Positions 7,703-34,434 of a stretch of 64,000 nt of DNA are shown piece after piece; within the stretch, counting starts at the first letter, position 1, and each line of letters opens with the position of its first letter. Position numbers and translations under genes: made by a program. Location: positions 696-64,695 of the forward strand of contig SXRM01000319.1 in the NCBI GenBank assembly GCA_005792545.1. The letters are read 5' to 3'. The DNA is from Pseudomonadota bacterium. GTDB taxonomy: Bacteria; Myxococcota_A; UBA9042. A model generated the notes under the pieces. The model was not told the origin of the DNA, searched no databases, and saw only the letters and a program-made list of their open reading frames with translations.

Positions 7703-7723
7703 CCATTCGTGGTTTGGAGACCC

Positions 7724-19326: not shown

Positions 19327-21096
19327 TCAGTCCCACTTGGGCTTCTTGACCACTTTCTTGATCACGGACTTGCTCGCTGTCAACGTGGCCTCAAAGAGTG
19401 GCTTGGTGGGCGCCAGCACGGCCAGCGTCGCGAAGTCGACTTCGAACGGGTCATGGCCCTCTTTCTTGAGCTGTAACTTGCTGAACCTGCCGGCAGCCAG
19501 CTCGACCGTGTACGGCGTCTTGCCGACCTCTTTGCCGTCCTGCAGGACGACCGCGCCGTCGGGCTTGCTGGTAATGACCATCTTTGGCGCGACCGCCGGC
19601 TTGGCAGGCTCCGGCGCCGCAACGGTCGGCGAAGGCGCCTTTGGCGCAGCCACTGGCTCCGCGGCCTTGGGCGGCTCCGGGTTTTCCGGCGCCTTTTCCG
19701 CAGCTTTGGCCTTGTTGTCGTCCGCGGACACGACTGGCTCTGGCGCGGACGGCTCGTCTGCCTTGGCAGCCGCGATTGGTTGCGCGGGTGGCAGCGGGTC
19801 GTCTCGCGTCAGCACGACCGCGGCGATCGCGCCGCCGATCAACACGACCGCGATGACCAGCAGCAGCAGGCGTTGCGTGCCGCCTTCCTGTTTTGCGGCA
19901 GCGGCCTTGCCGACGCTGCGAGCTTGGCTGGCGCCGCGGTTGCCACGGTCGCGCATCGTATCGAGATGGGCGGCGGCGTCGACCGTGTCCAGCGCCATGG
20001 TCGCAGCATTGGCTTGCGCAACACCCGGCAGGGCCGTCGCCACATCCATGGCCATGGTAGCAGCCGGTTCCGACCCCGCCCCAAGTGTATCCAAGGTCCG
20101 CGTCGCGTCGGCGTCCACATCCACCGGCTTGCTCGGCGGCGGTTGCGATCGCCGTGACGGCGGCGGAACGGTGACCGGTCGGCCCGGTGTCCGCGTGCTG
20201 ACCGCGTTGAACTGGCCACTGGGATGGCGCGGCGAACCGAGCGCGACCATGGTGCGGTCGATCGCCTCAAGCACCTCTTCGGCAGACTGAAAGCGCTGGG
20301 CCGACTTCTTGGCCAGCAACTTGAACACCAGGTGGTCCAATTCTTCCGGCACGTACAATTCAGGCGCGACATCGGCAAACGCGGGTGGCGGCTCCTGCAC
20401 GTGCTTGATCGCGACGGCGATCGGATCCTCGGCGACAAACGGCGGCCGGCCCGACAGCATTTCGAACAAAATGACGCCGAGCGAGTACAGGTCGCTCGCG
20501 GCCGACAGCGGCAGGCCCTGGGCCTGTTCAGGTGACAGGTAGCGCGGCGTGCCGAACATCTTGCCGGCCTGGGTCAGTTCCTGGCCGCCTGCCTCCAAGA
20601 ACTTGGCGATGCCAAAGTCGATGACCTTGATGAAATCCCTTTCGCCATAGATCTCGCACACAAAGATGTTGTCGGGCTTGAGATCGCGGTGAACGATGCC
20701 CTTGCTGTGGGCCTCGGCCAGGGACTTGAGCACCTGCCGGATCATGATGAGCGAGCGCTGGGTGTCGACCTGCCCTTTGCGCAACACCTGGGTCAGCGTT
20801 TCGCCGGTCAGGTACTCCATCACCATGTAGATAAGGCCATCAAACTGGCCAAAATCGATGACGCTAATGGTGTTGGGATGGCGCAACTGGGTCGACGCGC
20901 GGGCCTCTTGCTCGAAGCGGGCGACCTGCTTTTCGTCGGCGACCAGGTGTGACGCCAGGATCTTGATCGCCACCACCCGGTTCGACATCTGCTGGTCGTG
21001 GCCCTGGAACACCGACCCCATGCCACCCTGGCCGATGAGCTTGACGAGCTTATAGCGCCCGGCGAGTACGCGACCGACCAGTTGACTGCCGTCCAT
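19327..21096 (-). CDS. Ser/Thr protein kinase with C-terminal PEGA domain
   Basis: ATG at 21096 (MDGSQLVGRVLAGRYKLVKLIGQGGMGSVF). Kinase motifs AIKIL, HRDLKPDNIFV, DFGIAKF and GTPRYLSPE. TM segment LLLLVIAVVLIGGAIAAVVL. C-terminal ITSKPDGAVVLQDGKEVGKTPYTVEL is a PEGA domain. Confidence 0.9.
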   Translation of the reverse strand: MDGSQLVGRVLAGRYKLVKLIGQGGMGSVFQGHDQQMSNRVVAIKILASHLVADEKQVARFEQEARASTQLRHPNTISVIDFGQFDGLIYMVMEYLTGETLTQVLRKGQVDTQRSLIMIRQVLKSLAEAHSKGIVHRDLKPDNIFVCEIYGERDFIKVIDFGIAKFLEAGGQELTQAGKMFGTPRYLSPEQAQGLPLSAASDLYSLGVILFEMLSGRPPFVAEDPIAVAIKHVQEPPPAFADVAPELYVPEELDHLVFKLLAKKSAQRFQSAEEVLEAIDRTMVALGSPRHPSGQFNAVSTRTPGRPVTVPPPSRRSQPPPSKPVDVDADATRTLDTLGAGSEPAATMAMDVATALPGVAQANAATMALDTVDAAAHLDTMRDRGNRGASQARSVGKAAAAKQEGGTQRLLLLVIAVVLIGGAIAAVVLTRDDPLPPAQPIAAAKADEPSAPEPVVSADDNKAKAAEKAPENPEPPKAAEPVAAPKAPSPTVAAPEPAKPAVAPKMVITSKPDGAVVLQDGKEVGKTPYTVELAAGRFSKLQLKKEGHDPFEVDFATLAVLAPTKPLFEATLTASKSVIKKVVKKPKWD

Positions 21097-21548
21097 CCAA
21101 AACCTGTTGGACCCGACCGACCGTTGCGCGCGTGCTGCGCGGCGGTGGCGCGACCGATGGGCGTGTGACGCGCGCCGCCAGCGCAAAGTTGCGCTGCCCG
21201 GCTGGCTGTCAGGCCGATTTCGCCCGGCCGTTGCTTGGGTGCGACCGCCTTGTTGCATGCCAGGCTGCGGTCAAAGAGGACCGCAACGCCAGCAAATCGT
21301 CCGGCGAATTGCCGCCGGCCGCTACGACAAGGCCTTAAAACCCCACGCCTTTGTACCAGTGGCCCACGGCGGGCGCACTTCGGGCGGCACTATACACCAA
21401 AATGAACGGGCCGCGAAACAGCGCCCGCGCCCAATTCCCCGCGCTCCGCGCACCGTGCTATGCTCCGCGGCCCGCTGCCGCCGCGCGACCGAGTGATGCG
21501 GTCTGAGCGATCGCAAGCCCGGGCGGCAGCCGAATGCAGGAGCGCGCC

Positions 21549-22121
21549 ATGAGTTCCACCGCCATCGCCAACCGCAAATTCGGCGCCGACCCCTGGGTTG
21601 TACAACGTACCGCTCGGCTGCTCAGCACGCTGCTGCTGCTGGTGGGGGTTGGCTGCAACCAGGGCACGACAATCGGCGCCAACCAGGCGGTCGGCGAGAA
21701 CAAGAAAGAGGCTGAGCGCACCGTCAGCGGCAACGAGCTTCGCCAGAAAGGCGGCCTTTGCGATGTGAACCGGCGCGTCAGTGCACCCGATCTGGCCAGC
21801 CCAGAAGGCGTCATCTGGAGGATGTACCAGGTCGCCCAAAAGCCAGACACCGAGGAATCGCTCAAAGAATTCGTGGCGCTGTTCCCGTCGAGCAAAACCC
21901 CGCGCGAAATCAAGGAAAACTACTGGGGCCGCATGCGTGCCAACGTGCACAAATACGTGCTGGAGCCCGGCAAGCCCGACTTCACGATTTGCCGCACCGC
22001 GCACCGCGACGACGGCAAGATGTACTACATCGTGACCAAGGACCCGCGCCAAAGCCCGCCGCCGATCACGGTCGGTCCGGTCGATGGCGCCAACAAGATC
22101 GTGTTTCTGACGCCATTCTGA
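21549..22121 (+). CDS. hypothetical lipoprotein
   Basis: ATG at 21549 with AGGAG 7 nt upstream. Lipobox LLLLVGVGC. No recognisable domain. Confidence 0.6.
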   Translation: MSSTAIANRKFGADPWVVQRTARLLSTLLLLVGVGCNQGTTIGANQAVGENKKEAERTVSGNELRQKGGLCDVNRRVSAPDLASPEGVIWRMYQVAQKPDTEESLKEFVALFPSSKTPREIKENYWGRMRANVHKYVLEPGKPDFTICRTAHRDDGKMYYIVTKDPRQSPPPITVGPVDGANKIVFLTPF

Positions 22122-22164
22122 CGGCGTCTGCCGCGCCGGCGCAACGGCGAGGGGAGCGGGAGCA

Positions 22165-24045
22165 ATGAGGATTGTGGACTTTGATTCGCCAACGATGGCG
22201 CGTGGCGGCCGGATTTGGCTGGTCGTGGCCCTGGCCAGCCTGGCAGGCGCCTGCCAAGGCGAAGCTGTCGACGCCCCGAGCGCCGCGCCGGTCGAACACG
22301 GCGGCCTGGCGGCCAAGCTGGTTGCGCTGGACACCTGCGGTGGGGCGGCGGCGGACCCGTTCAGCCAGGTCAAGACATTGGAGCTCAAGGTGCGCGATGG
22401 CAGCTCCGGCACCTTGAAAAACGTGCTGGCCAAGGCAGCGACGGCGGCACTTGGCGGCGGCAAGACATCGGCGTCGTTTGCAGCAATTCCGGCCGGCAGC
22501 CCGCGCGAAGTGACGGTGCTCGGCTACGCGGCTGGCGCAAGCAAGCCGAGTTGGTTCGGCCGCCGTACCGGCGTCAACATCAAAAAGAACGACACCACCA
22601 CGCTCGACATGGCGTTGATGGCGGTCGAAGGCTTCACCTGCGTCGGCGCCAAGAACATGCCGAACGCCTTGTTTGCGGCGACCACAGTCATCGACAATGG
22701 CCGCGTGCTCATCACTGGCGGCTTTACCAACGCCAGTGTCGACGGCAGCCTGGTCAAGCTGGAATCGGCCTCGAATCGCGCCTACATCTTCGACCCGAAC
22801 ACCGGCAAATTCACGGCCACTAAGGGTTTCTTGCAAGAGGCGCGCGCCGGTCACGCTATGATCTACCTGGCCAAGCCAAACCAGGTGCTGATCGTTGGTG
22901 GCACCAAGAAGATGACGGTCGCGTCGGCTGGCAACGCGCCGCCTCTGTGGTCGCCGAGCGACGCCGCCAACCTGACCTACGAGATTTTTGACATTGCCAC
23001 TGGCAACTTCATTGCCGGCCCGGAGCAGGGCGCCAATTGCAAAAAACGCGTCCTGCCCAACCTGATGGCGCTGACCGATGACTACGTGGTGGCGCTCGGC
23101 GGTGCACCGTGGCCGCACAACGACACCGACTATTACGCCAAGAGCGATCTCTACGAAGCCAAGCACGGGCCCAACGAACCGACCGGCCGCTTCAAGGACG
23201 TTGGCAACGGCCTGCAGCTGAATGCCGTGCGCGCGGGCGCGGCGATTGCGTATGTTGGCCCGACGCCCAACGGCACCAGCCGGTATCTGGTTTGGGGCGG
23301 CAACACTGTAGCCAGCAACGTCGATTGCACCAGCCCGCTGCCGACCGCGCTCAAGCACGCCGAGCGCTTCAAGGAGAGCACGGAGCCCGGCACCGGCGAG
23401 TTTTTCGGCGACTACGTGCTGGAAGGCGACTTTGCCACGCCCTACGACGCCAAGAATGCCAAGTCGCTCAATCGCGACATGGCGCTGTTCTTTCCGACCC
23501 TGACGCCGCTTGGTCGCAAGGACGAGGGCGGCAAAGAGGCCTACCGCTTCCTGTCCGTCGGCGGCGCGCGCCATGCAACCTACCACCCGCAGCAGTGTGC
23601 GGCGGCGTGGGACAACTCGATCCTGGGCTGGCAGGCGCCAAGCCTGGACGACGCCTACATCTTGACGTTGGTCGAGCCCACGGACACCACCCAGGGTCGG
23701 CTGCTGACCAAGCGGGTGGCCGGTCTGGGCAAAGGCGTGTTCTTTCACCAGGCCAACCTGGCGGGAACGGGCGCCGTGGTGCTGAGCGGCGGCTTCTCGA
23801 CGTTTGGCGGCGACGCGGACTTCTCGATGCAGTACTTCGATATCGCCAGCACCAAGCTGCTGGGTTCTGCGCAGATGGAGGCTGCCAGCAAGTTCGTGCT
23901 GCGCGGGGGCCACAGCGCGCTGAGCCTGCGCAACGACTGCGTGCTGTTCTATGGCGGCGCGGGCAAACTGGCAGGCGCGTCGCTCAACAGCACGGCGATG
24001 GCCACCAGTGACGTGTACTGCCCGAAATTCCTCGTACCGAACTAG
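22165..24045 (+). CDS. lipoprotein with Kelch/galactose-oxidase-like beta-propeller repeats
   Basis: Lipobox LASLAGAC. Seven recurrent hydrophobic-stretch+GG blade signatures: VLITGGF, VLIVGGT, VVALGGA, LVWGGN, LSVGGAR, VVLSGGF, VLFYGGAG. Confidence 0.65.
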   Translation: MRIVDFDSPTMARGGRIWLVVALASLAGACQGEAVDAPSAAPVEHGGLAAKLVALDTCGGAAADPFSQVKTLELKVRDGSSGTLKNVLAKAATAALGGGKTSASFAAIPAGSPREVTVLGYAAGASKPSWFGRRTGVNIKKNDTTTLDMALMAVEGFTCVGAKNMPNALFAATTVIDNGRVLITGGFTNASVDGSLVKLESASNRAYIFDPNTGKFTATKGFLQEARAGHAMIYLAKPNQVLIVGGTKKMTVASAGNAPPLWSPSDAANLTYEIFDIATGNFIAGPEQGANCKKRVLPNLMALTDDYVVALGGAPWPHNDTDYYAKSDLYEAKHGPNEPTGRFKDVGNGLQLNAVRAGAAIAYVGPTPNGTSRYLVWGGNTVASNVDCTSPLPTALKHAERFKESTEPGTGEFFGDYVLEGDFATPYDAKNAKSLNRDMALFFPTLTPLGRKDEGGKEAYRFLSVGGARHATYHPQQCAAAWDNSILGWQAPSLDDAYILTLVEPTDTTQGRLLTKRVAGLGKGVFFHQANLAGTGAVVLSGGFSTFGGDADFSMQYFDIASTKLLGSAQMEAASKFVLRGGHSALSLRNDCVLFYGGAGKLAGASLNSTAMATSDVYCPKFLVPN

Positions 24046-24099
24046 GCACTTGCCCGCACCCAACTGCCGGCCACGGCCCCCGCAAACTGCGAGTTCACC

Positions 24100-25539
24100 A
24101 TGCACTTTCCATCTGCCGCCGGATCGCCCACTGCCCCGCGCGCCCGCCACCGCACCGGCACCGTGGTGCTGGCCGCGCTGGCCGCCCTGTCCGTCGCGGA
24201 CCCGGTGGCGTGGCTGCGTTTGGCGCAAACTGGCCACTATTTGTCGCAGGCGCACGCGCAAGCCGGCATCAATTCGACCTTAGCGGTCATCGTGGTCGCG
24301 ACCCAAAAGAAGGCGGGCGACGACGCCGAGGCCGTTGAGCGCCTGCTGGCCGACGGCACGGCACGACTGGACACGGTGCGATTGTTCCCGCTTTCGCCGA
24401 TCCCAAACGTCGAGGGCGCTGGCTCCGATGTCGAGACGGCGACAGGAGACCTGGTCGAAAATGCCCTGCGCGCCCTGCTCTTGCGCACGCCCAAGCAAGC
24501 GCAAGAGCGGATCGGCGCGGCGGTGGCCAAGCTCAAGGACCAGCCGATGGCCGGCGATGAGCGGCTATACGCGCGACTGTACAAAGCGCAGGGTCTGGCA
24601 CTGCTGGCGACCAATGAGATGGTGCCGGCGCGCGATGCGCTGCTCAGGTCGTTGATTCTGGCCCCGGCGCAGACCGACGAGGAATACGCTGGCTACGGTG
24701 CCAACGCCAAGGAACTGTTCAACGCGTGCAAGCAAATGGTCCAGCGCGGCCAGACGGGCGACCTCAAGATCACGGCGCGCGGCGGCAAGGCGGACATCTG
24801 GATCGACGGACAGTGGCGCGGCGCGGGCACAGCCCAGGCCAATAGCCTGCCCGTGGGCGTGCACCGCATCACAGTGCGCCAAAGTGGCATGTATGCTGAG
24901 CGTCGCTTCGTTGAAGTCGCGCCCGGCAAAAGCACCGCGGTTGAGTTTGACCTCAAACAAGCGCCATTCGGTCCGGACCTAGAACAGGGCCGCGCGGTGC
25001 TCGCCACCAACTTCAAGCAGCCGAGCGTCGTCGAAGATCGGATGCGCGAGCTGCGCAACCAGCTTGGCGCCGACCAGATGCTGGTGGTCCGGCAGGGCAG
25101 CGATAAGAAGGCCACCAAAATGGAAGGCTATTTTCTGTCGGCTGACGGCACGTTCCGCAAGGCAGAAGGCAGCGCCGAAAAGGACGCCAACTATTTCGAC
25201 CATATCGGCGAATTCGTGGCGGAAGTCAGCGGCGCCAAGCTAGGGCCCGATCCGCAGACGGCGCCGCTGGATCTGCGCCAGAGCGCTGTGGTCGTGACGG
25301 GCACGCGCAAGGCCGGCGACACGGTAGGGGCCGATCCCAACGCTCCGCTGTTCCCGGATGAAGAGGACGGCAAGAAGAAGAAAGCCGTGACCAGTCAGTG
25401 GTGGTTCTGGACCGCAGTGGCCGCCGGCGCTGGCCTGGTCGGCACCGGCATCTACTTCTTGACGCGCGGCGGTGGCGAAGCAGCCGAAGGCGCGGTGGGC
25501 ACCGTGCAGGTCAATCTGGCCAAACCCGACGCGCCTTGA
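24100..25539 (+). CDS. PEGA domain membrane protein
   Basis: PEGA segment DLKITARGGKADIWIDGQWRGAGTAQANSLPVGVHRITV. N-terminal hydrophobic signal/anchor. C-terminal TM WWFWTAVAAGAGLVGTGIYFL. Confidence 0.7.
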   Translation: MHFPSAAGSPTAPRARHRTGTVVLAALAALSVADPVAWLRLAQTGHYLSQAHAQAGINSTLAVIVVATQKKAGDDAEAVERLLADGTARLDTVRLFPLSPIPNVEGAGSDVETATGDLVENALRALLLRTPKQAQERIGAAVAKLKDQPMAGDERLYARLYKAQGLALLATNEMVPARDALLRSLILAPAQTDEEYAGYGANAKELFNACKQMVQRGQTGDLKITARGGKADIWIDGQWRGAGTAQANSLPVGVHRITVRQSGMYAERRFVEVAPGKSTAVEFDLKQAPFGPDLEQGRAVLATNFKQPSVVEDRMRELRNQLGADQMLVVRQGSDKKATKMEGYFLSADGTFRKAEGSAEKDANYFDHIGEFVAEVSGAKLGPDPQTAPLDLRQSAVVVTGTRKAGDTVGADPNAPLFPDEEDGKKKKAVTSQWWFWTAVAAGAGLVGTGIYFLTRGGGEAAEGAVGTVQVNLAKPDAP

Positions 25540-25555
25540 GCCGCGACGCCTCGCG

Positions 25556-26353
25556 ATGAGCCGCCAACGCAATTGCCTTCTCGTCGCGCTGACGCTGGCG
25601 GTTGTACCGGTGCTGGCCCTTGCCCAGCCATTCGAGATGCGGCGCGACTGGCTGGAAATCCGTCGCGGTGGCGCGGACGCGATCGTGGCCGCAGCGCGCG
25701 CTGCTTCGGCGCCGGCCGCGTGGCAGGCCACCTATGCCGTCATGCTGCCTGCCGGCCATGCGTTGAGCCCGGACAAGGCGACAGAGTTGCGACTGACCGT
25801 GGCGCGCGACAAGCCCATCGGCAAAGGTGCTGTCGGCGGCAGCTTGATGGTGCGGGTCGACGCGCCGTTGCCCATCAAAGGCATCGGTCTGGTCGTGCAT
25901 GGCGGCAAGGCGTGGCTGCGGGCGCCGGGTGGCAAAGCGGCTCCGGCTAGTCCAGCCGCGCTGTTCGCAGCGGTCGCCGGCCTGGGCGTTCCCTGGGCGG
26001 CGTTTGCCCCACTGGAATTCAAGGGGCTGCACAGCGCGACGCTCGAAGGGGAATTTGGCGATATCGCGGTCCTGCGCGGCAAGCCCGAATACGTCGCCGG
26101 GCCGGGCGTGGCGCCCGTCAAGGCAGGCATCTCCAAGCGCCATGGCTGCTGGGTCGTCGGCGAAGTGACCGACCGGCACGGCAAAACGCTGGCGCTGGTG
26201 CAGTGGCTTGAAGTCGGAGAACTGCAAGGGATTCCGGTACCTGAACGTCTGCGTCTGCGCGGTGTCGCCGGCGAAGCGGTCGCCCTGGATCTGCGGCGCC
26301 TGGACCTGACGGTTGGACGCCCACCGGCCTGGGGTCCGCGCCTGTTGCGATAG
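25556..26353 (+). CDS. secreted hypothetical protein (possibly LolA-like lipoprotein-sorting fold; weak)
   Basis: ATG at 25556 with signal MSRQRNCLLVALTLAVVPVLALA-QP. The LolA-like suggestion rests only on size and loose pattern similarity. Confidence 0.5.
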   Translation: MSRQRNCLLVALTLAVVPVLALAQPFEMRRDWLEIRRGGADAIVAAARAASAPAAWQATYAVMLPAGHALSPDKATELRLTVARDKPIGKGAVGGSLMVRVDAPLPIKGIGLVVHGGKAWLRAPGGKAAPASPAALFAAVAGLGVPWAAFAPLEFKGLHSATLEGEFGDIAVLRGKPEYVAGPGVAPVKAGISKRHGCWVVGEVTDRHGKTLALVQWLEVGELQGIPVPERLRLRGVAGEAVALDLRRLDLTVGRPPAWGPRLLR

Positions 26354-26445
26354 TTGCGGCCCCCCGATCGTGCGGTTATGCTCCGCGCGGTCGGGTAGCC
26401 AGGGCGCGGCCGGGGGTAGGTCGCTGGCGCCGCGAAGGATTCAGC

Positions 26446-27813
26446 ATGATGCCCAACCAGTCCATGATTCGACGAACGGCACGCAAAGCGGTGTGGGCGG
26501 CCGCGGTGGTCGGTGTCGCAGCGTTGGTGGCGGCGCCCGCGCAAGCGGTCGAGATCACCGACGTGCTCGACGCAATGGACGACGACAACAATGACCCGTT
26601 CGATGCTGCCGTTCGGGTGCGCTACACCTCGGACACGCGTCAGTCGGCCATTGCCCGCCAGGCGCGCTGCTTGAAGAACGACGTGCTCGGCTCGGCCTGC
26701 CCCAACGGCAGCGGCTACGTGTTGGCCCGCGAATTGGAGTACGAGCGCATTCGCAACGTACTCAACTTCGATTTCCGCTTCGGCATCTACAAGGACCTGG
26801 AAATCTACGCGGTGCTGCCGCTGGTCATCAGCGACGACTGGAAGCATGAGTTCTCGCCCGGGGTGTCGCGGGCGAACTCGACCATCTTGCCGCCCAAAGA
26901 CAACACGACGAGCACGCCTTCGGACCGCTCAGCGCTGTTCAAAGTCCCCTATCAGAGCACTTCGCGGGCCGGCATGGGCGACCTCAAGCTCGGGCTGCGC
27001 TGGTCGCCGTTCAACTACTACCGCGACGCCTCGGAGCCGACCTGGGTGTTTGGCTTTGAGTACACAGCCCCAACCGGTACGCCGATGAAGGCGGACAACG
27101 ACGGCGTGGGCTACGGCCTGCACGAGTTCAAGCTATTCTCGAACATCTCGCGGCGAGCGCTGCGGATTTTCGAGCCGTTTTGGGGCTTTCACGCGGCTCC
27201 GCGCGTCGGCGCCAGCGACGGCTTGTTCACCAAGCGCGGCAAAACCCAACGCTACATAGAGCCCGGCTTCAACGCCGGCACGCAGTTTGGCCTGACGGTG
27301 GTGCCGTGGGAAAACCCCAAGCAAGAAGAGCGCTTTGAGATCGAAGCTGGCGTGAACTTCGAGTACTTCTATCGCGGCCGCGAGTACACGGAAATTTGGG
27401 AGGCCCTGGCCTCGCCCAACAACCCATGCAAGCCGAGCGAAGGCTGCAACAACGTGCTGTATTCACAGTCGGCCCTCGACCCGATTACCGGCAAGCCGAT
27501 CCGCAGCGACGGCATTACCGAAGTGGAGCCGTATGCGCGGTTCGGCGGCTGGGGCGCGCTGCACTATCAGCCGGTGCAGTATTTCCAGATTTCCGCCAAA
27601 TTCAGCTACTTCCGCGAGACACCGCACTTCATCACCTACGGCGACATCGGCGTGGATCTCGACGGCCGCGACAAGGTTTCGGCCTTCAATAGCACGGGCG
27701 AGAATGAGTTCAGCCCGGTGTACCTGCCAGCCGTCGATACGGTGGGCCAGCGGCTGCGTGTGCTCGATGTGACCAACCTGGGCTTGCAGTTCGCGATTAC
27801 TGGCAAATTCTAG
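26446..27813 (+). CDS. outer-membrane beta-barrel protein (unclassified)
   Basis: Signal peptide ...LVAAPAQA-VE. Beta-strand-like alternation. C-terminus LGLQFAITGKF, a terminal Phe typical of OMPs. Confidence 0.65.
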   Translation: MMPNQSMIRRTARKAVWAAAVVGVAALVAAPAQAVEITDVLDAMDDDNNDPFDAAVRVRYTSDTRQSAIARQARCLKNDVLGSACPNGSGYVLARELEYERIRNVLNFDFRFGIYKDLEIYAVLPLVISDDWKHEFSPGVSRANSTILPPKDNTTSTPSDRSALFKVPYQSTSRAGMGDLKLGLRWSPFNYYRDASEPTWVFGFEYTAPTGTPMKADNDGVGYGLHEFKLFSNISRRALRIFEPFWGFHAAPRVGASDGLFTKRGKTQRYIEPGFNAGTQFGLTVVPWENPKQEERFEIEAGVNFEYFYRGREYTEIWEALASPNNPCKPSEGCNNVLYSQSALDPITGKPIRSDGITEVEPYARFGGWGALHYQPVQYFQISAKFSYFRETPHFITYGDIGVDLDGRDKVSAFNSTGENEFSPVYLPAVDTVGQRLRVLDVTNLGLQFAITGKF

Positions 27814-27967
27814 TCGGTTGCTGGCTGGCGCCTGTTGGGGTGCGGCCACCACTTACACACACAGTTTCGCATTGCCGGTCGGGGGCAAACCCCGTATTCT
27901 GGGCGGCTGGCCGTTGCGCCGGGTCGGTTGCCCGCGCGCGCCAAGTAGCACCCGCACGGAGCCGTCG

Positions 27968-30253
27968 ATGACCCAACGAATCCTCGTAGTGATGAGTCTG
28001 AGTGCGTCGGTTGCGGCGTGCGTCGGCGGCTCGGACGGCAGTGGCAGCGCTTCGATCTCTGCGGCAGCAATCGTCTGCGTCGGGCCGGGCGACTGTGCAA
28101 TTGGCCAGGATTGCATCGACGGCAAATGCGCGGCGCAGGTCAGCTTTGGCAAGGATGCGGCGGCAAGCGGTGACAGCAGCGGGTCGGCCGACGGTGGGGG
28201 CACCAAGAGTGACAGCAGCCCCAACACCAGCCAAGCGGACGGCGGCGGCGCTGTGAGCGATGTGACCAGCGGCAGTCAGGCCGGCACTGCGTGCAAGGTT
28301 GACCAGGACTGCGACGACAAGGTCGCCTGCTCGCTCGACAAGTGCGTCAACGGCAACTGCTACCACCCCAAGAAGTCCGACCCTTCGTGCAGCTGCACAA
28401 AGACCAGCGACTGCGACGACGGCAACACCTGCACGGCCAACGTCTGCAAAAGCGGCATCTGCACCTATGCCAAGTTCGTCAACCCGAACAACCCCGACCC
28501 CAACTGCTGCGCAACCGACGCGGAGTGCACCGACTCGACCGGCGCCACCAGCGGCAAGTGCATGGAATACCACTGCATCTTCAAGACGCTGACCAAATGC
28601 AAAGCCAACGCCGACTGCGACGACAGTAACGTCTGCACGTCCGACGTGTGCGTTTCGGGCAACTGCGAAAACAAGGCCAAGCTGGGCTGCTGTATGGGCG
28701 ACGGCGAGTGCAACGACGACAACCCGTGCAGCGTCGACACCTGCAACAAGGGTACCTGCCAATTTAAGGGCGCGGCATCGGCCGGCTGTTGCGACGACGC
28801 GAGCGGCTGCGACGACGGCATCGTGTGCACCATCGACAGTTGCGAAGGCTATCAGTGCCAGCACTTGCCCGGCGGCGAGGGCTGCTGCGTAACGGACAAG
28901 CAGTGCGACGACGGCAAGGTCTGCACCATCGACACCTGCCAGAACGGCACCTGCGACCATCAGCCCGGCTCCAACTGCTGCAAATCCGCGTTGGACTGCG
29001 ATGATTTCAGCCCGTGCACGGCCGACGAGTGCAAGGCCGGCGAGTGCTTCAACACGGCCAAGTCGGGCTGTTGCATCAACGACTTTGAGTGTGACGACAA
29101 CGATCCGAATACCACCGACACCTGCGTCAACGACGTCTGCAAGAACACGGGCAGTAGCGGCGGCGGTGGCGGCAAGTGCACCAGCAATGCCCAGTGCAAC
29201 GACAGCGACCAGTGCACGACCGACACGTGCTTTCTAGGCACCTGCTCCAATGCGCCGATTCCAGGCTGCGGCGGTGGCGGTGGCGTCGGCTCGTGCAAGG
29301 GCAAGTGCGGCGCCCAGGGCGTACAACCAGGCGGCTGCTACTGCGACGACCTGTGCCAGATGAGCGGCGACTGCTGCGGCGATTACGGCGCCCAGTGCGG
29401 CGGCGGCGGCAATGTGCCCAAGTGCGGCGACGCCAAGTGCGACCCTATCGGCGAGTCGTGCAGCACCTGTCCAGCGGACTGCGGCCCCTGCGGCGGCAAG
29501 GGCACCTGCGTCGGCGTTTGCGGAGGTCAGTCCAAGGACGGCAGTTGCTTCTGCGATAATACCTGCAGCACAGCCGGTGACTGCTGCGCAGACTACCAGG
29601 CCGTGTGCGGCGGCGGCGGAGCGCCCAAGTGCGGCGACGCCAAGTGCACCGCGCCCACCGAAACCTGCAGCAGCTGCCCGGTGGACTGCGGACCTTGCGC
29701 TGCCAAGTGCGGCGACCTCAAGTGCGACGCGGCAACGGAAAACTGTCTGACCTGCCCCGGCGATTGCGGCCCGTGCGCCAACAAGAATACCTGTGCCGGC
29801 TCCTGCGGTGGTAAGTCCAAGACCGGCACCTGTTACTGTGACAGCGCCTGCACGGCCTCTGGTGATTGTTGCCCGGACTACAACGCCCTGTGCGGTGGGT
29901 CAGGCGCGGTCAAGTGTGGCGACGCCAAGTGCACTGCGCCCACCGAGACGTGCAGCAATTGCCCCGCTGACTGCGGCGCGTGCCCCAACAAGAATACCTG
30001 CGTCGGGGCGTGCGGTGGCCCATCGAAGACCGGCACCTGCTGGTGCGACACCGCGTGCAAGTCGGCTGGGGATTGCTGCCCGGACTACGCGGCCGCCTGT
30101 CCCGGTAGTGGCGGGGGTACCTGCGGCGCCAAGCCGACAACCAGCTGCAAAGGCAAGTGCGGCGGCCAGGGCACGGGCGGGTGCTGGTGCGACAGCGTGT
30201 GCACGAGCGCCGGCGACTGCTGCCCCGATTTCAAGCCCTGCGGCTGTTTCTGA
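27968..30253 (+). CDS. cysteine-rich lipoprotein: ~10 slime-mold-type Cys repeats followed by 5 somatomedin-B-like domains
   Basis: ATG at 27968, lipobox SLSASVAAC. nt ~28292-29290 encode repeats of the form CC-x5-C-DD-x3-C-T-x-D-x-C-x2-G-x-C. nt 29294-30250 encode five modules with the 8-Cys spacing C-x3-C-x8/9-C-x-C-x3-C-x5-CC-x-DY-x3-C, for example CKGKCGAQGVQPGGCYCDDLCQMSGDCCGDYGAQC. These alternate with KCGDAKC-x4-E-x-C-x2-CP-x-DCG-x-C linkers. Confidence 0.85.
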   Translation: MTQRILVVMSLSASVAACVGGSDGSGSASISAAAIVCVGPGDCAIGQDCIDGKCAAQVSFGKDAAASGDSSGSADGGGTKSDSSPNTSQADGGGAVSDVTSGSQAGTACKVDQDCDDKVACSLDKCVNGNCYHPKKSDPSCSCTKTSDCDDGNTCTANVCKSGICTYAKFVNPNNPDPNCCATDAECTDSTGATSGKCMEYHCIFKTLTKCKANADCDDSNVCTSDVCVSGNCENKAKLGCCMGDGECNDDNPCSVDTCNKGTCQFKGAASAGCCDDASGCDDGIVCTIDSCEGYQCQHLPGGEGCCVTDKQCDDGKVCTIDTCQNGTCDHQPGSNCCKSALDCDDFSPCTADECKAGECFNTAKSGCCINDFECDDNDPNTTDTCVNDVCKNTGSSGGGGGKCTSNAQCNDSDQCTTDTCFLGTCSNAPIPGCGGGGGVGSCKGKCGAQGVQPGGCYCDDLCQMSGDCCGDYGAQCGGGGNVPKCGDAKCDPIGESCSTCPADCGPCGGKGTCVGVCGGQSKDGSCFCDNTCSTAGDCCADYQAVCGGGGAPKCGDAKCTAPTETCSSCPVDCGPCAAKCGDLKCDAATENCLTCPGDCGPCANKNTCAGSCGGKSKTGTCYCDSACTASGDCCPDYNALCGGSGAVKCGDAKCTAPTETCSNCPADCGACPNKNTCVGACGGPSKTGTCWCDTACKSAGDCCPDYAAACPGSGGGTCGAKPTTSCKGKCGGQGTGGCWCDSVCTSAGDCCPDFKPCGCF

Positions 30254-30343
30254 GCCCAGCCGGGTGGCGCCCGCCAATTGCCGTGCTACTTTTGCGGCCG
30301 CTGGACGGCCCCCAAGCAGTGTGCGCCGGGCGACGGAGTGACT

Positions 30344-30733
30344 ATGCTAAACCAAATCAAGGACATGGCCGCCAAGCAGGTCGGCAAGGTGCTGGCGTCT
30401 GACGCGGCGATGAACGTGCTCAGCAGCCCGCAACTCAAGAATGCGGTGGTGACGGCCATCAACTTGCGCGCCGAGGCGCGCGACGCCCTGGAGCGCCGCG
30501 TCAAAGAAGTCGCGACCGCGTTGGAACTGGTCACCCGCTCCGACGTTGCCAAGCTGCGGCGCTCGATTGTTGACCTGCAAGACCACCTGGCCGAGCTGCA
30601 AGCCCAACTTGCCGAAGCACAAGCAGATCTTGCCGCGACCAAGGCGGAAGCCGGCGCTGCGCCGGAGGCAGCCGCCGAAGCGCCCGAGCCCGCGCCCAAG
30701 GCCAAGAAGCCGCGCCGCAGCAAGGCCGACTGA
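30344..30733 (+). CDS. coiled-coil protein (phasin/UbiK-like; function uncertain)
   Basis: ATG at 30344 (MLNQIKDMAAKQVGKVL...). Heptad-like LRRSIVDLQDHLAELQAQLAEAQADLAATKAE. Lys/Pro-rich tail. Confidence 0.55.
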   Translation: MLNQIKDMAAKQVGKVLASDAAMNVLSSPQLKNAVVTAINLRAEARDALERRVKEVATALELVTRSDVAKLRRSIVDLQDHLAELQAQLAEAQADLAATKAEAGAAPEAAAEAPEPAPKAKKPRRSKAD

Positions 30734-30758
30734 GACCCGATCGACCCGGAGAGCGCTG

Positions 30759-31331
30759 ATGGCCGTGCTGCCCGTTGTAACCTACCCCGACCCCGTGCTG
30801 CGGCAACGCTGCAAGGAAGTGATTGCCTTTGATGCCAGCCTGCACAAGCTGCTGGACGACATGGGCGAGACCATGGCCGCGGCAGAGGGCATCGGCCTCG
30901 CGGCCAATCAGGTAGGCGACCTGCGCCGGTTGTTCTTGATGAACGTGCCGGTGGACGAGAACACCACCACCGGCCTGCTCGAGGTCATCAACCCGCGCGT
31001 TGTGGCCAAGCGTGGCGAAGTGCGGTTTGAAGAGGGTTGCCTGTCGTTTCCGAGCGTGTATGAGTTCGTGGTGCGCGCCAACGAGATCGAGTTGCACTAC
31101 CAGGACCGCAGCGGCGCAGCGCAAAAACTCATTTGCCGCGGCATTGTGGCGATTTGCGTACAGCACGAATTCGACCACCTCGAGGGCATCACGTTTCTCG
31201 ATCGGCTCAGTCCGCTCAAGCGCCAACTGGCCCTGCGCGACTACGACCGCAAAAACCGCGAGGCGCTGGATGACAAAGCGTTTCGCGCCAAAGCGCGCGC
31301 GCGCCGGTCTCCGCCGCAGCAGATCAGCTGA
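30759..31331 (+). CDS. def: peptide deformylase
   Basis: ATG at 30759. Motifs GIGLAANQVG, EGCLSFP and QHEFDHLEG. Confidence 0.92.
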   Translation: MAVLPVVTYPDPVLRQRCKEVIAFDASLHKLLDDMGETMAAAEGIGLAANQVGDLRRLFLMNVPVDENTTTGLLEVINPRVVAKRGEVRFEEGCLSFPSVYEFVVRANEIELHYQDRSGAAQKLICRGIVAICVQHEFDHLEGITFLDRLSPLKRQLALRDYDRKNREALDDKAFRAKARARRSPPQQIS

Positions 31332-31339
31332 CCTCGTCC

Positions 31340-32284
31340 ATGCGCACCGTGTTTTTCGGTTCGCCACCGTTCGCGGTTGCCGTGCTGCGGTCGCTCTTGG
31401 ACGCTGGAGCCCATGTCACGGCGGTGGTGTCGCAGCCAGACAAGCCGGCCGGCCGTGGCAACCAACTGACCTCGCCAGCAGTCGCCCAATTTGCCCGCGA
31501 ACGCGGCATCGCGGTGCATCAACCGACCAAGGTGCGCGACGGAGCACTCGCTGCGTGGCTGCGCGATCAAAAGGCAGACGTCGCGGTCGTCGCCGCCTAC
31601 GGCCGCATCCTGACGCAAGAGGTGCTGGACGCGCCGCGGCTCGGCTGCGTCAATGTCCATGCCTCGTTGCTGCCGCGCTGGCGGGGCGCGTCGCCCATTG
31701 CGCGGGCCATCGCGGCCGGCGACACCAAGACCGGTGTCTGCTTGATGCAAATGGACGCGGGCCTGGACACCGGACCCGAACTGGCACGCGCGGAAATCTG
31801 CGTCGGCGACGACGACACCACGCCTTCGCTGGAAGTGCGACTGGCGCAGCTGGGCGGCCAACTGCTAGTTGATCATTGGGCGAGCCTCGCCGTGGGCAGC
31901 CTGGCCGCGCGCGTGCAAGACGAGACTGCGGCGACTTATGCGCCGCCGCTGCGCAAAGAAGACGGCCGGCTGGACCTGTCGCGGCCTGCGCCCGAGCTGC
32001 ACGCGCTGGTGCGCGCCGTGCAGCCATGGCCTGGCGCGGTGGTGGCGACTGTGCTCGGCGAGGACTGGAAGATCGGTGCCGCCGGTTTGCGTTGGCGTGA
32101 CGACACCGCGCCGGTCGGGCACATCGCGGCAGTGGACCGCGACTGCGTGTGGATCGGCTGCGGCAGTGGCTGCCTTGGTGTTGCAGAGCTACAGCGGCCC
32201 AACAAGGCCAAAGCGGCGGCGCCAGACGTGCTGCGCGGGGTGCGGCTGGGCGCAGGTGCAGCGCTGGCTGCTGAGGCAACGTGA
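31340..32284 (+). CDS. fmt: methionyl-tRNA formyltransferase
   Basis: MRTVFFGSPPFAV...VVSQPDKPAGRGNQLTSPAV...HASLLPRWRGASPI. Canonical position after def. Confidence 0.92.
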   Translation: MRTVFFGSPPFAVAVLRSLLDAGAHVTAVVSQPDKPAGRGNQLTSPAVAQFARERGIAVHQPTKVRDGALAAWLRDQKADVAVVAAYGRILTQEVLDAPRLGCVNVHASLLPRWRGASPIARAIAAGDTKTGVCLMQMDAGLDTGPELARAEICVGDDDTTPSLEVRLAQLGGQLLVDHWASLAVGSLAARVQDETAATYAPPLRKEDGRLDLSRPAPELHALVRAVQPWPGAVVATVLGEDWKIGAAGLRWRDDTAPVGHIAAVDRDCVWIGCGSGCLGVAELQRPNKAKAAAPDVLRGVRLGAGAALAAEAT

Positions 32285-33111
32285 GCATGGGCAAGGCACC
32301 GCGGATTGCCATGATTGGCTGCGGCAACATGGGCGGCGCCATCGCGCAGCGTTGGCTGGACACCGCGATCGTGCCCCAAAGCGGCTTGTGCGCATGTACC
32401 TCGCGGCCGGCGTCAGCGGCAGAAGTCACAAGGCGGCTGGGCATCGAAGCTGGCACGAATCTGGCCGAAGCGGTCGCCGACGTCGATGTGGTCGTGCTCG
32501 GCTTCAAGCCGCAGGGCCGCGTCGAGATCCTGGCGCAGTTGCGCAATGTGCTGGGCGACCGCAAGCCGCTGGTGGTGTCACTGCTGGCCGGCGTCGAGTT
32601 GGCCGAACTCCGCGGCGTCTTGGGCCCGCGGGTGGCGCGGTGGATGCCCAACACGCCGGTGCTGACCGGCGCGGGGGTTGTCGGGCAGTGCGCACCTGGG
32701 CTCTCGGAAGCCGACGTAACGACGCTTGCCGGCCTGGCGGCGCCGCTGGGCTTGCGCGTCGACGTCGCCGAGCGCGACTTCAATGCGCTGACTGCGGTTG
32801 CGGGCTGCGGCCCGGCCTATGTGTTCCTGTTCTGCGAAGCCCTGGCCAGCGCGGGCACGTCGGCGGGTTTGGATCGCGACGTTGCCCAACAACTGGCCCG
32901 GCAGGTCGCCGTGGGTGCCGGACTGCTGCTAGCTAGCGCGCCAGAGCAACCGGCCGAGCTGCGCGAGCGCGTTACCAGCAAGGGCGGCATGACCGAAGCG
33001 GCGCTGCAACAACTGCGCCGGCAGGGTTGGGGAATCGCGATGCACAGCGCGGTCGCCGCAGCAGTCGAGCGGGGGCAGCAATTGGCCGCGCCGCCACGGA
33101 ACGCGAAATAG
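32281..33111 (+). CDS. proC: pyrroline-5-carboxylate reductase
   Basis: IAMIGCGNMGGAI (Rossmann motif), RWMPNTPVLTGAGV and VTSKGGMTEAAL. The GTG start overlaps the fmt stop; an ATG at 32287 is an alternative. Confidence 0.88.
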   Translation: MSMGKAPRIAMIGCGNMGGAIAQRWLDTAIVPQSGLCACTSRPASAAEVTRRLGIEAGTNLAEAVADVDVVVLGFKPQGRVEILAQLRNVLGDRKPLVVSLLAGVELAELRGVLGPRVARWMPNTPVLTGAGVVGQCAPGLSEADVTTLAGLAAPLGLRVDVAERDFNALTAVAGCGPAYVFLFCEALASAGTSAGLDRDVAQQLARQVAVGAGLLLASAPEQPAELRERVTSKGGMTEAALQQLRRQGWGIAMHSAVAAAVERGQQLAAPPRNAK

Positions 33112-33114
33112 CGA

Positions 33115-34434
33115 TCAGCCTTTGAAAACACCTAGATGCGACAGCAGCGCCTCGGCGACGCTGTTGAGCACTGGCCCCACGCTGCCATCGTGCAGGCTCT
33201 TAGCGACCTCGCGGGCCTCGCTAATTGCGTCCAAGGCTTCAAGCGCGCGGTCGTCGGCCAGGTAAAACGCCACCATCGCCAACGCGGCGACCTGAAAGGC
33301 CACGGCATCGCCGATATCTTGCGCCGCCAGCACCGCTTCGGCCATCACGGTCACGCCATCGGCCGCCGAGCGGGCCTGACTCAGGTCGAACGGCAAGCCG
33401 AGCCAGGGGTCGAGGTGTGCGTTTTGCACCGCCGTCTTGCGCGCGGCCTGCACGGCTACCAGCGACGCCGAAACCGCCGCGTGGAAGTCCTGCGCTTGCA
33501 TCCAGATGGCAGACTGCGCGGCGCGCAGGTTGGCCGTCTCTGACCAGGAGGCTTCGGCCTCGCAGATGTTGGCAGCGTCTTGCAGCGACACCGCGCAACG
33601 ATCGGGCCGATGGCTGCGCATCCACAGCTGCGCCAGCGACGCGTGGCTGGCGTATGCCACAAAGGTCAGGCCCTCGTCGCGCTGCAACGGCAGGCGGCCG
33701 ATGTCGGCCAACTCGCTGCGCAACGACACCAGATTGCCGGTGGCGCCGTGGTAGGCGACGCGGGCTAGCAGCATTTCAGCCTGCACCCAGACTGTGCGGG
33801 TGGTAGATTCTGCCTCGGATGCTTGCAGCAACTGCCAGGCGGTATCCATCAAGCGCAAGTCGCGGTTGGCATCGACCGGCGACTTGTGGGCGAGGTAGGG
33901 CAGCCGCGCTGCGCGAATCAGGATCTCGGTGGCGCGATCGCGCGTCTCGACTGCGCGCACCAATGCGTGCTCCGCAGCGGCGAGCCCGGCGCTGGTCTGG
34001 TGGGCACACAGCGCGGTGCGGGCCACACAGGCGAGCAAGCGCACCTCGACGTCATCGGGGCAGGCGTCGCCGACCTCACCGAGCAGGCTGTGCGCGTAGG
34101 CCAGCCAGGTCGAGCGCCGCTGCACCGAGCCCGTCAACGACGGCATCCGTTCGACGAGATCCAGCACGGCGCGGGCCGCCTTGAGCGGGTCATCGGCGCG
34201 CACAGCGTCGTGATGTGGCCCGAGTTCTTCGAGCAAATGGCGAGGCAATGCCGGGCGATCGCGCAACTGCATCCAAAACACCGGGCCTGCCGGACAACGG
34301 GGCTGCGCGACCGGCGCGGCACAGGATGGCACGGCCGGCGGCGCACCGCGAATTTCTATACAGAGGGACCCAAATGACAAGGCCACGTCTGCGGCGGAGC
34401 CGCGAGTCGGCCCAAAGGGTCGCGAGTTGGCCAC
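33115..34434 (-). CDS. hypothetical alpha-helical protein
   Basis: Long ORF with genome-typical codon usage and Ala/Leu-rich helical composition. No family recognised. Start uncertain; an alternative ATG lies at 34272. Confidence 0.5.
   Translation of the reverse strand: MANSRPFGPTRGSAADVALSFGSLCIEIRGAPPAVPSCAAPVAQPRCPAGPVFWMQLRDRPALPRHLLEELGPHHDAVRADDPLKAARAVLDLVERMPSLTGSVQRRSTWLAYAHSLLGEVGDACPDDVEVRLLACVARTALCAHQTSAGLAAAEHALVRAVETRDRATEILIRAARLPYLAHKSPVDANRDLRLMDTAWQLLQASEAESTTRTVWVQAEMLLARVAYHGATGNLVSLRSELADIGRLPLQRDEGLTFVAYASHASLAQLWMRSHRPDRCAVSLQDAANICEAEASWSETANLRAAQSAIWMQAQDFHAAVSASLVAVQAARKTAVQNAHLDPWLGLPFDLSQARSAADGVTVMAEAVLAAQDIGDAVAFQVAALAMVAFYLADDRALEALDAISEAREVAKSLHDGSVGPVLNSVAEALLSHLGVFKG

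Follow-up and report, generated by a model that had tools for sequence, protein, structure and literature searches.

Here we describe a gene for a Cys-rich putative lipoprotein that ends in five somatomedin-B (SMB) domains. The gene lies on a 64,000-nucleotide stretch of contig SXRM01000319.1 (assembly GCA_005792545.1, positions 696 to 64,695), called the window below, and forms a single long open reading frame (ORF) on the forward strand, nucleotides 27968 to 30253, that encodes 761 residues, 127 of them Cys (16.7%). The gene is native to an uncultured member of the Myxococcota, and its product is an undescribed architectural variant of known module families, belonging to a conserved family in uncultured Myxococcota. 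It had been singled out in an earlier reading of the DNA (hereafter, the original prediction), which regarded a five-fold SMB array on a bacterial lipid anchor as unusual.

The C-Terminal Modules Are SMB Domains

When the whole protein was scanned against Pfam-A, a single family was returned, Somatomedin_B (PF01033), with 91 bits and an E-value of 5.8e-26 over five stretches. Scanned singly, every one of the five modules scored above the curated cutoff of 23.1 bits (Table 1), a likeness far greater than chance would give. The significant profile match agrees with the original prediction, which had read five SMB-spaced modules of eight Cys at nucleotides 29294 to 30250, and a regular expression returned five matches at those coordinates. 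All five carry the spacing C-x3-C-x8/9-C-x-C-x3-C-x5-CC-x6-C with a CC-x-D-[YF] core, a Cys motif that was invariant in 30 bacterial modules. In the window protein the modules read C-[YFW]-C-D-x-[ATVL]-C-x-x-[AS]-G-D-CC. A sequence search of the Protein Data Bank (PDB) matched EndoU (two SMB domains, E-value of 1.7e-6), autotaxin/ENPP2, ENPP1, vitronectin and the SMB-like domain of SUSD2.

An AlphaFold2 (AF2) model of module 3, built on the 30 bacterial modules, had a mean pLDDT of 87. Comparison of this model with the PDB by Foldseek gave SMB domains as 50 of the 50 matches listed; the best was the SMB domain of vitronectin (1oc0_B), with TM values of 0.78/0.80, a probability of 0.99 and 38% identity, and in the alignments with ENPP1 the identity rose to 42%. 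The Foldseek E-values, which count against this assignment, were weak (0.07), a consequence of the short query of 38 residues. Profile matches and predicted fold identify the five modules as genuine members of the SMB family.

The SMB modules (S) are interspersed with a six-Cys linker module (L), as had been proposed, and four linkers fitting C-G-D-x-K-C-x5-E-x-C-x2-C-P-x-D-C-G-x-C were mapped by regular expression. The order is S L S L L S L S S, with linkers 2 and 3 adjacent between SMB2 and SMB3 and no linker between SMB4 and SMB5. The linker matched no family in Pfam or NCBIfam; arrays of it were found elsewhere, with ∼10 copies in P0104, from a Myxococcales metagenome-assembled genome (MAG), and 11 in the L124 orthologue described below (genomic loci and proteins carry L and P numbers, respectively). 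At the DNA level the clear ∼200-nt tandem duplication of the original prediction proved overstated, the repetition being only moderately clear: the linker-plus-SMB units of ∼185 to 243 nt are 66 to 79% identical at spacings of 207 to 285 nt, and Tandem Repeats Finder (TRF) reported only the duplication of a 78-nt linker at 29625 to 29778 (2 copies, 76% matches). The last SMB module is a 10-Cys variant, with an additional upstream Cys719 and a C-G-C-F ending at the very end of the protein.

A Lipobox and Ten Dicty_CTDC-Like Repeats Precede the SMB Array

The N terminus fits the pattern of a signal peptidase II substrate, with MTQR as n-region, ILVVMSLSAS as h-region and VAAC as lipobox. The pattern used was [LVI][ASTVI][GAS]C near residues 15 to 25, with a positively charged n-region and a hydrophobic h-region. 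An equivalent lipobox is present in L005, L059, L064, L080, L124 and P0002, so that the bacterial lipid anchor of the original prediction holds as a pattern match in the window protein and its orthologues, which are putatively lipidated. The lipobox Cys is followed at +2 by Val and by neither Asp nor Lys. The ATG at 27968, which gives the 761-residue protein, was preferred over an upstream TTG because GGAG stands 6 nt before it.

After a small 4-Cys unit, the chain passes through a disordered, Ser/Gly-rich tether that gave no match in a Pfam scan and is the least conserved stretch in comparison with L005, holding most of the divergence between the two proteins. There follow, at residues 109 to 434, ten units mapped by regular expression to the consensus (C)C-x5-C-[DN]D-x3-C-T-x-D-x-C-x4-C. 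Eight are strict and two degenerate (residues 180 to 203 and 368 to 391), and 6 of the 10 start with CC. The count accords with the roughly ten Dictyostelium-like Cys repeats predicted for the N-terminal half.

The likeness of these repeats to Dicty_CTDC (PF00526) held for the family, and the window protein itself stayed below threshold. PF00526 was not matched in the Pfam scan of the full protein, and pieces of the repeat region scored 13.9 bits (N-terminal half), 20.3 bits (two repeats) and 21.2 bits (three repeats), all under the cutoff of 27. Among homologous three-repeat segments, 28 of 40 matched PF00526 at E ≤ 0.01 (best, 9.7e-12), and most of 88 full-protein homologues carry a precomputed PF00526 match. 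At family level, these profile matches show that the N-terminal repeats clearly overlap Dicty_CTDC. The NCBIfam scan of the whole protein, which included TIGR04201, returned no family at E ≤ 10, and neither it nor the Pfam-A scan found a catalytic domain.

An AlphaFold2 model of three repeats (pLDDT 86) predicts each unit as a short helix plus a β-hairpin. A fold search of the PDB with this model gave no credible match (best E-value 0.38, TM 0.2), which agrees with the listing of Dicty_CTDC among repeat families without known structure (PMC8078820). In Myxococcota, members of this repeat family stand N- or C-terminal to many extracellular domains, namely OmpA, matrixin, lamin-tail, disintegrin and M64 peptidase.

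Table 1. Features of the lipoprotein gene and its two neighbours (window coordinates)
Feature	Coordinates	Strand	Basis and remarks
Upstream neighbour, secreted 455-aa protein ending in Phe	26446..27813	+	syntenic in L005, L059, L064, L080, L124
Shine-Dalgarno GGAG	27958..27961	+	6-nt spacer to ATG 27968; read from sequence
Type II (lipoprotein) signal peptide MTQRILVVMSLSASVAAC, lipobox VAAC, putatively lipidated Cys18	27968..28021	+	sequence
Small 4-Cys unit CVGPGDCAIGQDCIDGKC	28076..28129	+	sequence; conserved in L005, L059, L064, L080, L124, P0002
Ser/Gly/Asp-rich low-complexity tether, aa 55-108	28130..28291	+	sequence
Ten Dicty_CTDC-like Cys repeats, ∼31 aa each, aa 109-434	28292..29269	+	regular expression; predicted rod-like stalk
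SMB module 1	29294..29398	+	PF01033 40.0 bits alone; regular expression
6-Cys linker module 1 (CGDAKC-x5-E-x-C-x2-CP-x-DCG-x-C)	29423..29491	+	regular expression; no family assignment
SMB module 2	29507..29608	+	PF01033 39.2 bits alone; regular expression
6-Cys linker modules 2 and 3, tandem pair	29630..29698 and 29708..29776	+	regular expression; TRF 78-nt period
SMB module 3	29792..29893	+	PF01033 40.9 bits alone; regular expression; AF2 model pLDDT 87
6-Cys linker module 4	29915..29983	+	regular expression
SMB module 4	29999..30100	+	PF01033 38.6 bits alone; regular expression
SMB module 5, terminal 10-Cys variant	30122..30250 (8-Cys core 30146-30247)	+	PF01033 27.1 bits alone; regular expression
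Downstream neighbour, 129-aa coiled-coil-like protein, followed by def and fmt	30344..30733	+	gene call on the European Nucleotide Archive (ENA) contig

A Syntenic Orthologue Family with Shuffled C-Terminal Modules

The closest orthologue, L005, comes from a MAG that serves as a GTDB representative (Myxococcota bacterium CJ01B_8.15) and matches the window protein over 529 residues with 78% identity. It is truncated by a contig end and adjoins the same upstream gene as in the window. Comparison of the two genes gave a ratio of nonsynonymous to synonymous substitution rates (dN/dS) of ∼0.15, and 78 of 79 Cys are conserved. These values show that the lipoprotein gene is real and under purifying selection. 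The first linker of L005 reads ...ETCTNGALDCGPC, as against ...ESCSTCPADCGPC in the window, with one Cys fewer in L005, and the SMB module that follows it resembles SMB module 3 of the window; the difference reflects either a real loss of a module or a collapse of repeats in a short-read assembly (the contig is 3.4 kb).

Beyond L005, identity to the window lipoprotein is only 36 to 45%. The plan common to L059, L064, L080, L124 and P0002 consists of lipobox, 4-Cys unit, Gly/Ser spacer, 8 to 11 repeats and a series of linker and SMB modules; the partial ORFs at L049 and L097 hold C-terminal modules only. The C-terminal order is S L L S S S in both L059 and L097, L L L (L) S S S S in L064, L L S L L S S S in L049, L S L L S L L S L L L L L L S S in L124 and S S S S, with no linker modules, in P0002. 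The window protein belongs with its syntenic orthologues to one family, whose C-terminal modules have been shuffled in both arrangement and copy number. The L124 orthologue (6483 to 9260) has 925 residues, 174 Cys, 5 SMB modules and 11 linkers, several of the latter being near-identical tandem copies of KPVCGNAKCEAPTETCTNCAVDCGAC, a sign of recent tandem amplification or of an assembly effect. No Pfam match is recorded for it in the collection, and therefore proteins of its kind are under-annotated.

Wherever the C terminus is present, the final SMB module sits at the extreme end of the protein. The 10-Cys form of this module, with its additional upstream Cys and C-G-C ending, recurs in L059, L097 and the distant proteins P0057, P0071 and P0088 besides the window protein; the C-G-C is followed by F or W in 3 of these 6 proteins, and the additional Cys lies ∼8 residues upstream. 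Other orthologues end in CCP or CCN. The invariably terminal position of the 10-Cys SMB could reflect a capping disulfide or an unrecognized sorting feature.

Conservation extends to the neighbouring genes. The order outer-membrane protein (OMP)-like gene, lipoprotein gene, gene for a small coiled-coil protein was found in L059 and L064 by tblastn with the three adjacent proteins; by the same means the first two genes were found together in L080 and the last two in L049 and L097. Gene calls give L124 (Myxococcales bacterium, GCA_009692425.1) the gene order of the window throughout the block: four upstream genes are followed by the OMP-like gene, the lipoprotein gene, a small gene, def and fmt. 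There the downstream position is held, by gene call only, by a 142-residue gene; the 129-residue downstream gene itself is syntenic in L059, L064, L049 and L097 (tblastn). Overall, nucleotides 20446 to 33800 of the window are collinear with the block in L124 and L001, which comprises a small gene, genes for a Kelch-repeat protein and for proteins of 479 and 265 residues, the OMP-like gene, the Cys-rich lipoprotein gene, the small coiled-coil gene, def and fmt. At least five further genomes of uncultured Myxococcota share the gene block, the evidence being complete for three.

The upstream 455-residue neighbour is probably an outer-membrane β-barrel. The window copy had no Pfam, NCBIfam or PDB match, and three homologues carry a precomputed match to PF13557. 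Among syntenic loci this OMP-like protein is 51 to 93% identical (52% for the L124 copy). Apart from Kelch motifs, neither it nor the four proteins encoded upstream of it in the block could be assigned to a family, and the 129-residue downstream protein gave just weak phasin/coiled-coil matches in NCBIfam.

The Gene Is Native to Its Environmental Genome

The same 761-residue gene is called on ENA metagenome contig k141_745058 (ERZ27257032, 244.6 kb), which is identical to the window across 13.4 kb bar one base; the window therefore represents an environmental assembly, not an isolate genome. An exact-sequence look-up of the 761-residue protein in a protein cluster collection found no entry, which we took for a technical quirk. 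The best clustered relatives are only ∼40% identical, and the orthologue group is therefore poorly represented among clustered proteins.

The original prediction had judged by eye that the gene looks native, and a check of codon usage and of GC content at third codon positions (GC3) agreed: GC3 is 0.837, compared with 0.82 ± 0.017 in 25 neighbouring genes, and the codon-adaptation value falls in the upper part of the neighbours' range. A recent horizontal transfer of the gene was rejected on this composition. The surrounding genes encode Ser/Thr kinases, a Kelch protein and an M23 peptidase and include def, fmt and proC, a set typical for Myxococcota together with bacterial housekeeping functions. 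Eukaryotic contamination was likewise rejected, given def, fmt, the Ser/Thr kinases, the 67% GC, the lipobox and the conserved bacterial synteny. Scans at the gene found no promoter-like site, and terminator-like sites were fewer than in shuffled sequence, with none at the ends of the gene.

SMB Modules Are Abundant in Environmental Prokaryotic Sequences

The five-fold array turned out to be far from exceptional: arrays of 5 to 18 SMB modules, many with a lipobox, are frequent in environmental data, and the same architecture makes up the syntenic Myxococcota family described above. A search with the C-terminal half of the protein returned 67 proteins, nearly all metagenomic, in which PF01033 stood alone or together with matrixin, astacin, Endonuclease_1, Ntox16, DUF4215, metallophosphoesterase or other domains; the one named animal match among them was an echinoderm EndoU. 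An SMB profile made from 30 bacterial modules was then searched against 1.84 billion cluster representatives and returned 2317 clusters at E ≤ 1e-3, some of which may be eukaryotic as the cluster library carries no taxonomy; 624 of the clusters reached E ≤ 1e-10 and 37 reached E ≤ 1e-30. The best 150 profile matches included 138 new proteins, 29 of them with at least five modules and 29 with a lipobox. The largest array had 18 modules confirmed by regular expression (P0167). Fusions of bacterial-type SMB modules with Ntox16, Endonuclease_1, matrixin/astacin and metallophosphoesterase domains were seen in P0087, P0118, P0121, P0127, P0135, P0111, P0115, P0147, P0159 and P0129.

A hand-designed degenerate DNA motif for C-x-C-D-x2-C-x4-D-C-C-x-D-[YF], carrying by our own estimate ∼44 bits of information with fewer than 0.1 chance matches expected, was scanned in the GTDB species-representative genomes. 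It found at least 118 stretches in prokaryotic genomes, mostly of Myxococcota; among the matches listed, all 118 lie in MAGs. By record label, these 118 comprise 66 with Myxococcota-lineage names, 11 "Deltaproteobacteria," 11 unspecific Proteobacteria, 8 "bacterium," 11 "Enterobacteriaceae" (65 to 72% GC, a doubtful label), 7 archaeal and 4 from other bacterial phyla. The low-GC loci under nonmyxobacterial labels that we checked, including 5 of the 7 archaeal ones, encode good SMB modules. The SMB module extends beyond the Myxococcota, provided that the bins are clean.

Loci with good SMB modules under labels other than Myxococcota include L017, L042, L063, L072, L088, L090, L033, L031, L085 and L047. 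The low-GC contigs among them (28 to 52%) bear the names of DPANN or other archaea, Cryomorphaceae, Thermodesulfovibrionia or unclassified bacteria, and L031 is a Gemmatimonadota contig of 63% GC with SMB modules. The eleven third-party-annotated (TPA_asm) MAG records titled "uncultured Enterobacteriaceae bacterium" (L004, L007, L014, L018, L046, L057, L062, L066, L067, L069 and L113) come from isolates named binchicken_* or <project>_co*. The 10 of these loci with a tabulated GC value lie at 65 to 72% and encode SMB/Dicty proteins of myxobacterial type; L067 has a 2609-residue ORF with 7 SMB modules. The Enterobacteriaceae labels on these records look wrong.

Comparison with Known SMB and Cys-Repeat Proteins

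A full-text literature search found no paper containing both "somatomedin B" and Myxococc*, and the literature searched for SMB together with prokaryotes, horizontal transfer, polymorphic toxins or PF01033 held nothing on bacterial SMB. In the papers found, SMB is discussed solely in animal proteins (vitronectin, ENPP/autotaxin, EndoU and DNase1L5). The Myxococcota relatives that combine SMB and Dicty modules are annotated as hypothetical proteins, and none has been described or named.

The modules of the window share with the SMB domains of vitronectin, ENPP1-3 and EndoU the eight-Cys pattern, the CC-x-D-[YF] core and, module by module, a score above the Pfam cutoff; their predicted fold superposes on the SMB domains of 1OC0, ENPP and SUSD2. 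As in animals, SMB modules occur in tandem and on extracellular proteins. Animal SMB domains are fused in ENPP, EndoU and DNase1L5 (PMC9208542), and the bacterial fusions to nucleases and phosphoesterases echo these arrangements. The window protein differs in being bacterial and, as predicted, lipid anchored, in having five SMB copies, whereas the solved animal chains matched have one or two, in interleaving them with an unclassified six-Cys module, and in lacking an RGD motif, a hemopexin domain or a catalytic partner. The bacterial SMB consensus, C-G-G-x-S-x2-G-x-C-[YW]-C-D-x2-C-x3-G-D-C-C-x-D-Y, is also tighter than the animal one.

The N-terminal repeats resemble those of Dicty_CTDC and of TraA (TIGR04201) as short tandem Cys repeats with the core C-[DN]-D-x3-C-T-x-D-x-C. 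For TraA, a myxobacterial receptor, Pathak et al. likened the Cys-rich repeats to Pfam00526 and suggested that they build a rigid stalk (PMC3325183). The same role, as a rigid support for a distal recognition domain, is proposed for the window repeats. These fall below the PF00526 cutoff and match neither TIGR04201 nor any other NCBIfam family. The anchors differ, with an N-terminal lipobox in the window protein and a C-terminal MYXO-CTERM tag in TraA, as do the distal heads, an SMB array in one and PA14 in the other. Dicty_CTDC also appears in a 2025 preprint, which counts it among the adhesion modules at the N terminus of bacterial teneurin-like proteins and finds these proteins best represented in Myxococcota (10.1101/2025.11.11.687626).

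The overall plan of the window protein is shared by the metagenomic Myxococcota proteins with PF00526 and PF01033 (P0002, P0057, P0071 and P0088) and, together with the gene neighbourhood, by the syntenic L005, L059, L064, L080 and L124. What sets it apart from these relatives is how many SMB and linker modules it has and how they are arranged, the linkers ranging from zero in P0002 to eleven in L124.

Proposed Function and Alternatives

We consider it somewhat probable that the protein is a nonenzymatic, disulfide-rich envelope lipoprotein, a stalk that presents SMB knots and, on the cell surface or inside the envelope, acts as an adhesin or docking scaffold. After export by Sec, the protein would be lipidated at Cys18 and, with Val at +2, sorted to the outer membrane, and once in the periplasm the 126 Cys left in the mature protein would pair into ∼63 disulfides. 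A stiff stalk, analogous to the one proposed for TraA, may be made up of the flexible Ser/Gly tether and the rod-like hairpin repeats; it would hold the distal SMB array away from the outer membrane. There the SMB knots might serve as small, protease-resistant units that bind proteins or other ligands, as they do in vitronectin and the ENPPs, and the resulting adhesin or docking scaffold could work together with the conserved neighbouring outer-membrane-type protein. In the orthologue family, Cys residues are strictly conserved alongside free shuffling of the distal modules.

Several observations count against pairing the lipoprotein with its neighbour in this way. The synteny with the OMP-like gene spans the whole block, def and fmt included, homologues of the OMP-like protein at 33 to 35% identity lack a Cys-rich lipoprotein neighbour, and the distant SMB plus Dicty proteins P0071 and P0088 stand in unrelated gene contexts. 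The synteny may thus reflect general conservation of gene order and not a functional pairing. Because synteny is lost in the distant OMP homologues and distant SMB plus Dicty proteins occur elsewhere, we do not claim an operon-level functional link between the OMP-like protein and the lipoprotein.

A purely periplasmic role, in which the disulfide-locked rod would reach from the outer membrane to a further envelope layer or complex as a ruler or tether, is unlikely. It would suit the N-terminal lipid anchor, the absence of a detectable surface-export signal in the sequence, the placement of the gene in a conserved block, beside an envelope-type protein and housekeeping genes, and the elongated shape of the repeat model; however, bacterial SMB modules elsewhere sit on clearly secreted matrixin, astacin, Endonuclease_1 and Ntox16 proteins, and the orthologues vary strongly in how many C-terminal modules they have and how these are arranged, a pattern typical of interaction surfaces that are exposed and unexpected for a ruler whose length is critical. 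Somewhat less probable still is a scaffold for predation, whose SMB knots would bind hydrolases, toxins or the prey envelope and bring them together on the cell's surface or on outer-membrane vesicles. The repeated fusion of bacterial SMB modules to nucleases (PF04231), metalloproteases (PF00413 and PF01400), a phosphoesterase (PF00149) and Ntox16 is in keeping with such a role, as is the description of Myxococcota as contact-dependent predators (PMC10433427); yet no enzyme or toxin gene is adjacent in the conserved block.

The high Cys content could suggest a secreted, metallothionein-like buffer that sequesters metals or absorbs oxidants through its thiols, all the more as the window holds a second Cys-rich putative lipoprotein (7709 to 9271). 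We regard this as very improbable, since the Cys spacings match disulfide-knot families and not metal clusters of the C-x-C or C-C type, the 126 Cys of the mature protein make an even number, the protein would be exported to an oxidizing compartment, and the high-confidence models predict ordered folds. The weakest of the rivals, which we consider barely credible, is mimicry of host vitronectin or ENPP by a host-associated bacterium that would bind animal PAI-1, uPAR or integrins. The original prediction had raised such mimicry of the eukaryotic module, and it would be compatible with Pfam scores well above the cutoff and with fold alignments that show 32 to 42% identity with animal SMB domains. 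The window and all relatives, however, are environmental MAGs (with isolate labels such as groundwater and Lake Baikal), the window protein contains no RGD motif, and the SMB module is spread across hundreds of free-living lineages. In vitronectin, PAI-1 is bound by Phe13, Leu24, Tyr27 and Tyr28 together with the Asp after C-x-C; by our reading of the sequence, only this Asp is kept in the window modules.

A Second Cys-Rich Putative Lipoprotein in the Window

The second Cys-rich putative lipoprotein, encoded on the forward strand at 7709 to 9271 directly after a Ser/Thr kinase gene (6128 to 7702), has 520 residues and 64 Cys. A lipobox-like ...AVTVWGC is followed by a spacer of ∼170 residues rich in D, A, G and T and by ∼7 copies of a different repeat of ∼45 residues (C-x-G-x3-C ... 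CG-x-G-x-C ... GTC-x-G). An NCBIfam scan of this protein gave no match.

Evolutionary Implications

The main interest of these findings is evolutionary. Genuine SMB modules are abundant in uncultured Myxococcota and sporadic in other prokaryotic MAGs; their partners include nucleases and phosphoesterases, which are shared with animals, and in bacteria also proteases and toxins. The original prediction had also raised a bacterial ancestry of the eukaryotic module. It is possible, though we hold it only tentatively, that SMB is primarily a prokaryotic extracellular module that diversified in Myxococcota and was gained horizontally by animals or their unicellular ancestors. If so, the diversification would have taken place on secreted nucleases, phosphoesterases, proteases and polymorphic toxins, and a partner of nuclease or EndoU type might have passed to animals together with the module. 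Bacterial surface and toxin proteins would then be the ancestors of the SMB domains in ENPP, EndoU and vitronectin, a descent of the kind argued for teneurins, and the family described here would be the free-standing, lipid-anchored presentation form of the ancestral module. The ∼37 alignable SMB positions are too few to resolve the direction of transfer between bacteria and metazoans.

One conserved orthologue family displays SMB arrays on a Cys-repeat stalk that is predicted to be lipid anchored, and the origin of a module of the animal matrix and serum is now open to direct phylogenetic testing. The bacterial variants, small and very stable, are on offer for structural and binding studies. 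The analysis also flags an unannotated six-Cys module and a Dicty_CTDC-type repeat with a confident model and no solved relative, and it points to a class of disulfide-rich surface proteins, annotated as "hypothetical," in predatory or social bacteria.

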